This document shows positions 22,397 to 22,550 of a stretch of 38,455 bases of DNA, piece by piece (the first letter of the stretch is position 1; every line of letters begins with the position of its first letter). Made by a program: the position numbers and the translations under genes. The notes under the pieces were generated by a model. It was given only the letters and a program-made list of their open reading frames with translations, ran no database searches and was not told where the DNA came from. The stretch lies in the IMG/VR virus record IMGVR_UViG_2713896790_000012; one strand, 5' to 3'. Source of the stretch: a virus. Lineage: Duplodnaviria; Heunggongvirae; Uroviricota; Caudoviricetes.

Positions 22397-22471
22397 TGGA
22401 GCGGGTAGCGGGAATCGAACCCGCATCATCAGCTTGGAAGGCTGAGGTAATAGCCATTATACGATACCCGC
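22397..22471 (-). tRNA. tRNA-Gly (anticodon UCC)
   Basis: Reverse complement GCGGGTATCGTATAATGGCTATTACCTCAGCCTTCCAAGCTGATGATGCGGGTTCGATTCCCGCTACCCGCTCCA: anticodon stem TCAGC/GCTGA, loop CTTCCAA, T-loop GGTTCGATTCC, CCA end; near-identical to host glyT with a compensatory acceptor-stem change. Confidence 0.9.
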
Positions 22472-22474
22472 ATA

Positions 22475-22550
22475 TGGTGCCGACTACCGGAATCGAACTG
22501 GTGACCTACTGATTACAAGTCAGTTGCTCTACCTACTGAGCTAAGTCGGC
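22475..22550 (-). tRNA. tRNA-Thr (anticodon UGU)
   Basis: Reverse complement GCCGACTTAGCTCAGTAGGTAGAGCAACTGACTTGTAATCAGTAGGTCACCAGTTCGATTCCGGTAGTCGGCACCA: anticodon loop CTTGTAA, T-loop, CCA end. Confidence 0.9.

Follow-up and report, generated by a model that had tools for sequence, protein, structure and literature searches.

A host-like tRNA-Thr(UGU) and tRNA-Gly(UCC) pair between the Q-like gene and the lysis genes of a Rac-like lambdoid prophage

ARAGORN called exactly two tRNA genes in the window (the whole 38,455-nt, or 38.5-kb, stretch of DNA that was analysed), namely tRNA-Thr(UGU) and tRNA-Gly(UCC), both on the minus strand and separated by the trinucleotide TAT (Table 1). Both genes scored well above the Rfam RF00005 gathering score of 29 (E values of 2e-14 for Thr and 3e-12 for Gly), a match strength that is far beyond chance. 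The identity elements recognized by ThrRS (G1:C72, C2:G71, G35 and U36) and by GlyRS (U73, G1:C72, C2:G71, G3:C70, C35 and C36) were unchanged in the prophage tRNAs, and the 6:67 pair of tRNA-Gly, which differs from the host gene as described below, is not on that list. A pseudogene reading was ruled out by ARAGORN, Rfam, conservation and covariation, and on sequence criteria both are intact and presumably functional tRNA genes. The earlier note had described two canonical cloverleaves lying 3 nt apart on the late strand, and this description was borne out, as the late genes are also on the minus strand.

Table 1. Features of the tRNA locus and its surroundings, with positions in the window.
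Feature	Position	Strand	Description and evidence
Q-like late antiterminator gene	22913-23569 (RefSeq start: 22913-23449)	minus	Pfam DUF1133 1e-102, Phage_antitermQ 3e-6 (weak)
Non-coding block linked to Q, presumed pR' region	22790-22912	minus	conserved; ends in tR'-like terminator
tR'-like terminator	stem 22818-22799, T-tract to about 22790	minus	terminator scan; dG -17.4 kcal/mol, z -3.7
Candidate sigma-70 promoter TTGCGA-16-TATCAT	22614-22641	minus	consensus scan
tRNA-Thr(UGU)	22475-22550	minus	76 nt, encoded CCA; ARAGORN, Rfam 73.8 bits, thrU alignment
TAT spacer, 3 nt between Thr and Gly genes	22472-22474	minus	read off sequence
tRNA-Gly(UCC)	22397-22471	minus	75 nt, encoded CCA; ARAGORN, Rfam 65.6 bits, glyT alignment
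Structured conserved non-coding stretch just downstream of tRNA-Gly	22170-22396	minus	folding, consensus pairs, homology blocks
Second intrinsic terminator	22008-22035 (stem 22035-22016 + T8)	minus	terminator scan; dG -12.5, z -3.9
Holin S, P21 type, first lysis-cassette gene	21405-21707 (RefSeq start: 21405-21620)	minus	Pfam Phage_holin_2_1 5e-35

Over a 401-nt stretch around the tRNAs, identity to a prophage of E. coli APEC O1, and to several other strains, was 100%. According to the APEC O1 annotation and the ORFs of the window, this is a Rac-like lambdoid prophage that adjoins ttcA and carries intR/xisR, ralR and the RalA sRNA, recET, kilR, sieB, a replication region, DUF1367, YbcO and DUF1133, followed by the tRNAs, essD/rrrD/Rz, trkG, and the terminase, head and tail genes. 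The minus strand carries all of the late genes (holin, lysozyme, terminase, head and tail). The lysis genes are separated from the terminase region by an inserted potassium transporter gene, trkG (18770-20245, minus strand), which, with a very low GC3 of 0.32 and heavy use of ATA, ACA and GGA, is clearly foreign to phage and host alike. A QueH gene (epoxyqueuosine reductase, PF02677, 2e-65; 25129-25815, minus strand) was found in the early region and is a predicted second tRNA-related function on the prophage, namely queuosine modification of GUN-anticodon tRNAs. The prophage also contains two type I toxin-antitoxin loci, comprising a sok-like antisense RNA (24961-25061, minus strand), with a Hok/Gef gene annotated beside it in APEC O1, and RalA, the antitoxin sRNA that belongs to the RalR system (36721-36899, minus strand). 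The ORF for the small terminase subunit (15631-16725, minus strand, 364 aa) is uninterrupted in the window; in APEC O1, its counterpart has an internal stop and carries a pseudogene annotation. Rz appears as two ORFs; this split was rejected as biology and attributed to a scaffold-gap artefact, as a run of 50 N (20594-20643) inside Rz is flanked by a 32-nt duplication, and the window derives from a gapped assembly.

The pair is bordered on one side by the DUF1133/Phage_antitermQ gene, homologues of which are annotated as antitermination protein Q in related phages, and on the other by the P21-type holin (annotated essD in APEC O1) and lysozyme genes of the lysis cassette. Between Q and the tRNAs, a terminator hairpin is located 95 nt past the Q stop codon. 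In 17 related loci, the block from the end of Q to this terminator was well conserved and the 3' end of the Q coding sequence was not; furthermore, homology between the window and phage 666R9, which has the same Q type and no tRNAs, stops directly after the terminator T-tract. Taken together, this homology break and the conservation of the block make the label of tR'-like terminator reasonable (a Q/pR'/tR' module followed by an accessory slot) and support the assignment of the terminator to the Q module. Thus, the position given in the earlier note, between Q and the lysis cassette and downstream of a tR'-like terminator, was upheld. A consensus scan found no pR' promoter site between the Q stop codon and the terminator, and TTGCAA-17-TTCAAT, which had been spotted by eye as a possible pR', was too weak for a claim.

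A candidate sigma-70 promoter, with an AT-rich tract (22660-22790) before it, was identified some 60 nt upstream of tRNA-Thr. Its hexamers were kept in the 17 related loci, with position 4 of the -10 element as the sole change. The tRNA region held 3 promoter-like sites compared to 3.8 expected from shuffled sequences, that is, no excess, and the site is a weak promoter candidate. Downstream of tRNA-Gly, the structured non-coding stretch folded with a minimum free energy of -88.3 kcal/mol (z -5.55 relative to shuffles), including a long hairpin of about 40 pairs. This fold was kept in 12 distinct homologues, with 77 consensus pairs of which 5 showed compensatory changes, and the stretch accompanies the tRNA pair in many other phage contexts. 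It matched no Rfam family and may be an unnamed late-leader RNA or sRNA; at permissive thresholds, Rfam gave only chance-level matches in 21600-23000 besides the two tRNAs. The tRNA region is separated from the holin gene by a second, strong terminator. A terminator-like hairpin with a T-run on the plus strand (21961-21984) converges on it, and a conserved 32-aa ORF (21782-21880, minus strand) was seen between these converging terminators and the holin gene.

We compared both tRNAs with the corresponding operon of E. coli K-12, where the order is thrU(UGU)-tyrU-glyT(UCC)-thrT(GGU)-tufB and where thrU and glyT are each present as one copy. The prophage Thr gene was identical to thrU at 76/76 positions and matched thrT at only 50/76. 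The prophage Gly gene matched glyT at 73/75 positions, the only differences being C6 to U and the G to A change of its partner (sequence position 66, standard position 67), such that U6:A67 replaces C6:G67; on the plus strand these changes fall at positions 22466 and 22406. The earlier note had called the pair near-identical to glyT and thrT but in the opposite order, with a compensatory change in the acceptor stem of tRNA-Gly. The compensatory change and the likeness to glyT were confirmed, whereas the Thr gene proved to be thrU, and the alignment rules out an origin from thrT with inversion of the order. Because the Thr gene corresponds to thrU rather than thrT, the order of the pair is that of the host, with tyrU and the spacer missing.

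In the prophage, a 3-nt spacer stands in place of the 209 nt that separate the Thr and Gly genes in the host. The sequence TAT corresponds to the T found behind thrU in the host, joined to the AT found ahead of glyT, as would be left by a single 206-bp deletion; the chance that TAT would fit the host junction bases was estimated at about 6%, a figure that concerns three bases only. Outside the tRNAs, the flank comparison revealed no similarity to the host thrU operon, and global alignment of the AT-rich tract upstream of Thr with the thrU promoter region gave only scattered AT-rich matches. Neither tyrU, thrT and tufB, nor the 116-nt spacer or the coaA-side flank of the host operon, was found at the prophage site. 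We therefore rejected the possibility that the host locus had been mistaken for phage DNA, as the flanks are unlike the thrU operon and the neighbours are prophage genes. Since the flanks are unrelated to the host tRNA operon, the pair is an acquired copy, as proposed previously; the further description of this copy as diverging holds for Gly (2 nt) but not for Thr (zero differences). Overall, the origin of the cassette is best explained by derivation from the Escherichia thrU-tyrU-glyT operon through loss of tyrU and the spacer.

Further copies of the cassette indicated that its tRNAs are under constraint. Among the 17 loci that share the flanks of the window, 1–3% of columns were variable in the tRNAs, compared to 15–26% in the flanks. 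Across 20 distinct Gly alleles, 99.5% of cells formed standard pairs and 3 pairs showed compensatory changes, and no shuffle reached either the paired fraction or the covariation score of the real alleles. At pair 6:67, the host-like C:G was present in 57 copies and the U:A of the window in 39, with U.G intermediates also present. Judged by these patterns, the cassette copies are working tRNA genes rather than copies in decay. Gene conversion by the host genes may help to explain the perfect identity of Thr, and the high conservation could in part reflect such conversion rather than selection on the phage copy.

The distribution of the cassette was examined using a 50-nt probe across the Thr-Gly junction, which is unable to seed on the host locus. 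The probe matched 865 of 5426 complete E. coli genomes (16%, about one in six), in which a total of 1040 copies were found (up to 5 per genome), all of them annotated as tRNA-Thr/tRNA-Gly. The exact junction pattern was also present in at least 120 IMG/VR contigs, and among species-representative genomes it occurred in E. coli, Shigella flexneri, E. ruysiae, Citrobacter braakii and Enterobacter hormaechei. The spacer was TAT in 122 of 123 cassette copies elsewhere, and a 4-nt spacer was seen in seven contigs only. This near-uniformity of the spacer points to a single origin of the Thr-TAT-Gly cassette.

Deposited phages also carry the cassette. In phi467, PhiR47_1, 606R7, JLK-2012 and SerU-LTIIb it is placed between Q and S on the late strand, with stx2f upstream of it in the Stx2f phage phi467. 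A description of the phi467 Thr and Gly tRNAs has already been published (PMC7366253), and searches of the literature for the Thr-Gly pair by name turned up little beyond that report. The 154-nt cassettes of phi467, vB_EcoS-683R6, 606R7, 689R5, PhiR47_1 and SerU-LTIIb were 97–99% identical to that of the window and shared its 3-nt spacer, Q-S position and strand, but stood among other flanking modules, and many had the host-like C6:G67 allele of Gly. In about half of the other contexts the pair belongs to a longer array, in which Met(CAU) and Lys(UUU) or Arg(UCU) genes precede it; for example, Met(CAU) and Lys(UUU) genes lie upstream in PhiR47_1 and 606R7, an Asn gene lies upstream in JLK-2012, and SerU-LTIIb has two copies of the cassette, one with an Arg anticodon. 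The tRNAs added in these arrays read A-ending codons (Lys UUU, Arg UCU and Leu UAA), in addition to a CAU gene that may be Ile2-like. Whereas Thr and Gly are host-identical, these upstream genes are phage tRNAs that have diverged. We also observed that the Thr scaffold can carry switched anticodons (UCU for Arg, and CUU and UUU for Lys) with the Gly gene still following, at L003:1122-1197 (SerU-LTIIb), at L128:2995-3070 (Morganella phage IME1369_01) and in two IMG/VR contigs, and that the Lys(UUU) and Arg(UCU) genes upstream in the longer arrays are likewise built on one common scaffold.

When 124 contexts of the cassette were compared with the window, homology mostly started 0–14 nt from the 5' end of Thr and stopped at the 3' end of Gly, with recurrent breakpoints at 22183, 22075, 22006 and 21654 in the remaining contexts. 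Breakpoints at the tRNA ends imply that the pair is a mosaic module of about 155–170 bp, and since phages with the same Q but no cassette exist (666R9 and relatives), the cassette is dispensable. Such a pattern would be in keeping with the pair being a neutral passenger, that is, a piece of the host operon captured once, kept intact mainly by gene conversion from thrU and glyT, and serving as a crossover point between mosaic genomes; the absence of any divergence of Thr from the host gene, the close relatives without the cassette, and the shuffling of alleles among haplotypes all agree with this. However, a passenger would not readily account for the spread of the cassette, which reaches 16% of complete E. 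coli genomes as well as Citrobacter and Enterobacter, nor for its occurrence at the same position and on the same strand across unrelated phages, and phage-specific alleles that keep their pairing through compensatory changes are inexplicable by host gene conversion. We consider a purely neutral role improbable.

Both tRNAs read codons that are more frequent in the prophage than in a host sample. Prophage genes were compared with a 50-kb host sample, and in the late genes ACA made up 24% of Thr codons relative to 12% in the host sample (OR 2.4, p = 5e-7), while GGA made up 20% of Gly codons relative to 10% (OR 2.2, p = 5e-7). The ACA and GGA enrichment of late genes for which the earlier note suggested looking was thus present, but it was not specific, as it was equally present in early genes, and as AGA (OR 7.4) and ATA (OR 2.9), for neither of which the prophage has a tRNA, were more enriched. 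The major capsid gene contained few of these codons (ACA 4/30, GGA 6/38).

Our preferred reading, towards which we lean with modest confidence, is that the cassette provides late-expressed extra copies of two minor tRNAs that the host encodes by single genes. From the position of the pair, Q-dependent late expression is a reasonable inference, and we infer the timing of expression, the processing, the charging and the benefit as follows. The cassette would occupy an accessory slot with the Q/terminator module on one side and the lysis genes on the other; during lytic growth, RNA polymerase modified by Q would pass the upstream terminator and transcribe Thr-UAU-Gly within the late transcript, and the weak promoter just upstream might supply some Q-independent expression. 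RNase P would then cut each 5' end, 3' exonucleases would trim to the encoded CCA, and host ThrRS and GlyRS would charge both products. The result would be an additional gene copy for each of two minor isoacceptors, multiplied as the phage genome replicates, with Thr(UGU) reading ACA/ACG and Gly(UCC) reading GGA/GGG, and this added supply would sustain translation of phage proteins late in infection. The intact genes, the unchanged identity elements, the low variation and compensated pairing of the tRNAs, the late-strand Q-S position in several phages, the roughly twofold enrichment of ACA and GGA, and the A-ending codons read by the tRNAs added in longer arrays favour such late supply, whereas the lack of specificity of that enrichment, the capsid gene poor in ACA and GGA, and the cassette-free relatives speak against it. 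The strong terminator that separates the tRNAs from S also speaks against it and makes any layout of the late transcript tentative.

It could also be proposed that the pair acts in the lysogen, where constitutive transcription from its own promoter would double the dosage of thrU and glyT, for example to the benefit of AT-rich horizontally acquired genes. The candidate promoter and the AT-rich tract upstream are conserved in related loci, terminators on both sides would bracket a self-contained unit, and ACA, GGA and ATA abound in trkG, a moron of the prophage. Nevertheless, the promoter match was no better than chance, and the promoter lies outside the shared cassette, upstream of which the sequence differs in most contexts; lysogenic conversion of this kind is therefore very unlikely in our view. 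Passenger and lysogen-benefit roles are both less likely than late tRNA supply or a role in defence.

A role in defence would consist of replenishing, or competing for, tRNAs that are destroyed or inactivated during infection by defence nucleases or toxins of host or prophage (P2-OLD, PARIS AriB, and toxSAS such as FaRel2), and we regard it as a possible though tentative alternative to late supply. It was previously shown that P2-OLD aborts an infection by lambda through cleavage of host tRNA-ThrU at paired CNG motifs (nt 28-30 and nt 40-42), and that phage tRNA-Thr(UGU) genes, including that of the lambdoid phage 21, rescue cells from P2-OLD (PMC12445682). A prime target of PARIS AriB is also tRNA-Thr(UGU), together with Lys(UUU) and Asn(GUU) (PMC12409363), both of which neighbour the pair in other arrays. 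Furthermore, the FaRel2 toxSAS selects exactly tRNA-Gly plus tRNA-Thr, these being the same two as in the cassette, with Gly2 the most enriched (PMC11559606). The paired CNG motif with A37, which marks OLD substrates, was present in both tRNAs of the window.

The allele in the window fits this role poorly. P2-OLD resistance requires a change in the CNG motif together with a shorter anticodon stem, and over-expressed host tRNA-ThrU gave little or no protection (PMC12445682). The anticodon arm of the window Thr (ACUGA/UCAGU) is that of host ThrU, with both CNG motifs (CUG/CAG) and all 5 pairs of the stem intact; of the features of P2-OLD-resistant tRNAs it has the UGU anticodon, and neither the altered motif nor the shortened stem. 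AriB-resistant phage tRNAs are altered by substitution at the C40|A41 cleavage site or close to it, or carry U16C, which impairs AriB cleavage in tRNA-Lys (PMC12409363). No such feature was found in the window Thr, which retains U16, C40-A41 and UAAUC|A as in the host. Without the published resistance features, this allele could help by dosage only. For tRNA-Gly, flips at acceptor pairs 1, 2, 4 and 5 compromise recognition by FaRel2, a flip at pair 3 does not, and the FaRel2 model contacts five acceptor pairs (PMC11559606); the sole change in the prophage Gly, at 6:67, is outside these. Moreover, the main texts of PMC12445682 and PMC12409363 do not name tRNA-Gly as an OLD or AriB target.

Other members of the cassette family carry Thr alleles of a different kind. 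U16C, usually with U20C in the Thr D-loop, was found in about 30% of cassette copies (L006-L125), and G42U/C together with U43C was found in 36 viral contigs of several backgrounds, including the JLK-2012 type (e.g. L174, L011, L119, L016, L169-L171; L005:3995-4070 in JLK-2012). The G42Y+U43C combination disrupts the anticodon-stem pairs 27:43 and 28:42 and abolishes the 3' CNG motif, and alleles with it fit both of the features reported for P2-OLD-resistant phage tRNA-Thr. These U16C and G42Y+U43C changes appear to coincide with published resistance determinants, which suggests that a counter-defence role is plausible for the cassette family, although it is poorly supported for the allele in the window.

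The cassette is already known, in the sense that it is common, routinely annotated and described in a Stx2f phage. Stx phages are known for an ileZ-argN-argO cassette, which is located between Q and stx and encodes tRNAs for host-rare codons. Similar to that cassette, the pair lies on the late strand downstream of Q, between the Q/terminator module and the lysis genes, and serves host-rare codons that are more frequent in phage than in host, albeit with non-specific enrichment; the comparison with Stx-phage layouts made in the earlier note is therefore apt, the arrangement being the same (PMC7366253). In contrast, the ileZ-argN-argO cassette consists of other, long-diverged phage tRNAs, whereas the prophage pair is nearly identical to host genes. 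The nuclease-resistant tRNA-Thr(UGU) genes that act against P2-OLD or PARIS, such as that of phage 21, share with the window Thr its anticodon, its lambdoid setting and its ThrU counterpart, but in the window allele the complete CNG motif, the 5-bp anticodon stem and U16 are all retained. Among the members of T4-type tRNA clusters are Thr(UGU) and Gly(UCC), both reading codons that end in A, and we found hundreds of virulent phages that have a Thr(UGU) gene at 84–88% identity. Such clusters are larger, diverged and carried by virulent phages, unlike the two-gene, host-identical cassette of a temperate phage seen here.

Overall, this locus is a clean case of a fragment of a host operon (thrU-glyT minus tyrU) that now moves through the lambdoid gene pool as a module of about 160 bp. 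It is conceivable, though we would put it forward only with considerable doubt, that the cassette family is kept in lambdoid prophages largely through conflict with tRNA-targeting defences (P2-OLD, PARIS AriB and toxSAS). If so, host-identical alleles like that of the window would represent a freshly captured or converted "unarmoured" state, the U16C, G42Y+U43C and anticodon-switched copies would be escape variants, and tRNA-Gly, with its paired CNG motif and FaRel2 acceptor determinants, would be a second defended target. Because P2-OLD was recently shown to have its key target in tRNA-Thr(UGU), which is also a prime target of PARIS, the natural series of Thr alleles (host-identical, U16C and G42Y/U43C) offers ready-made substrates for testing both systems.
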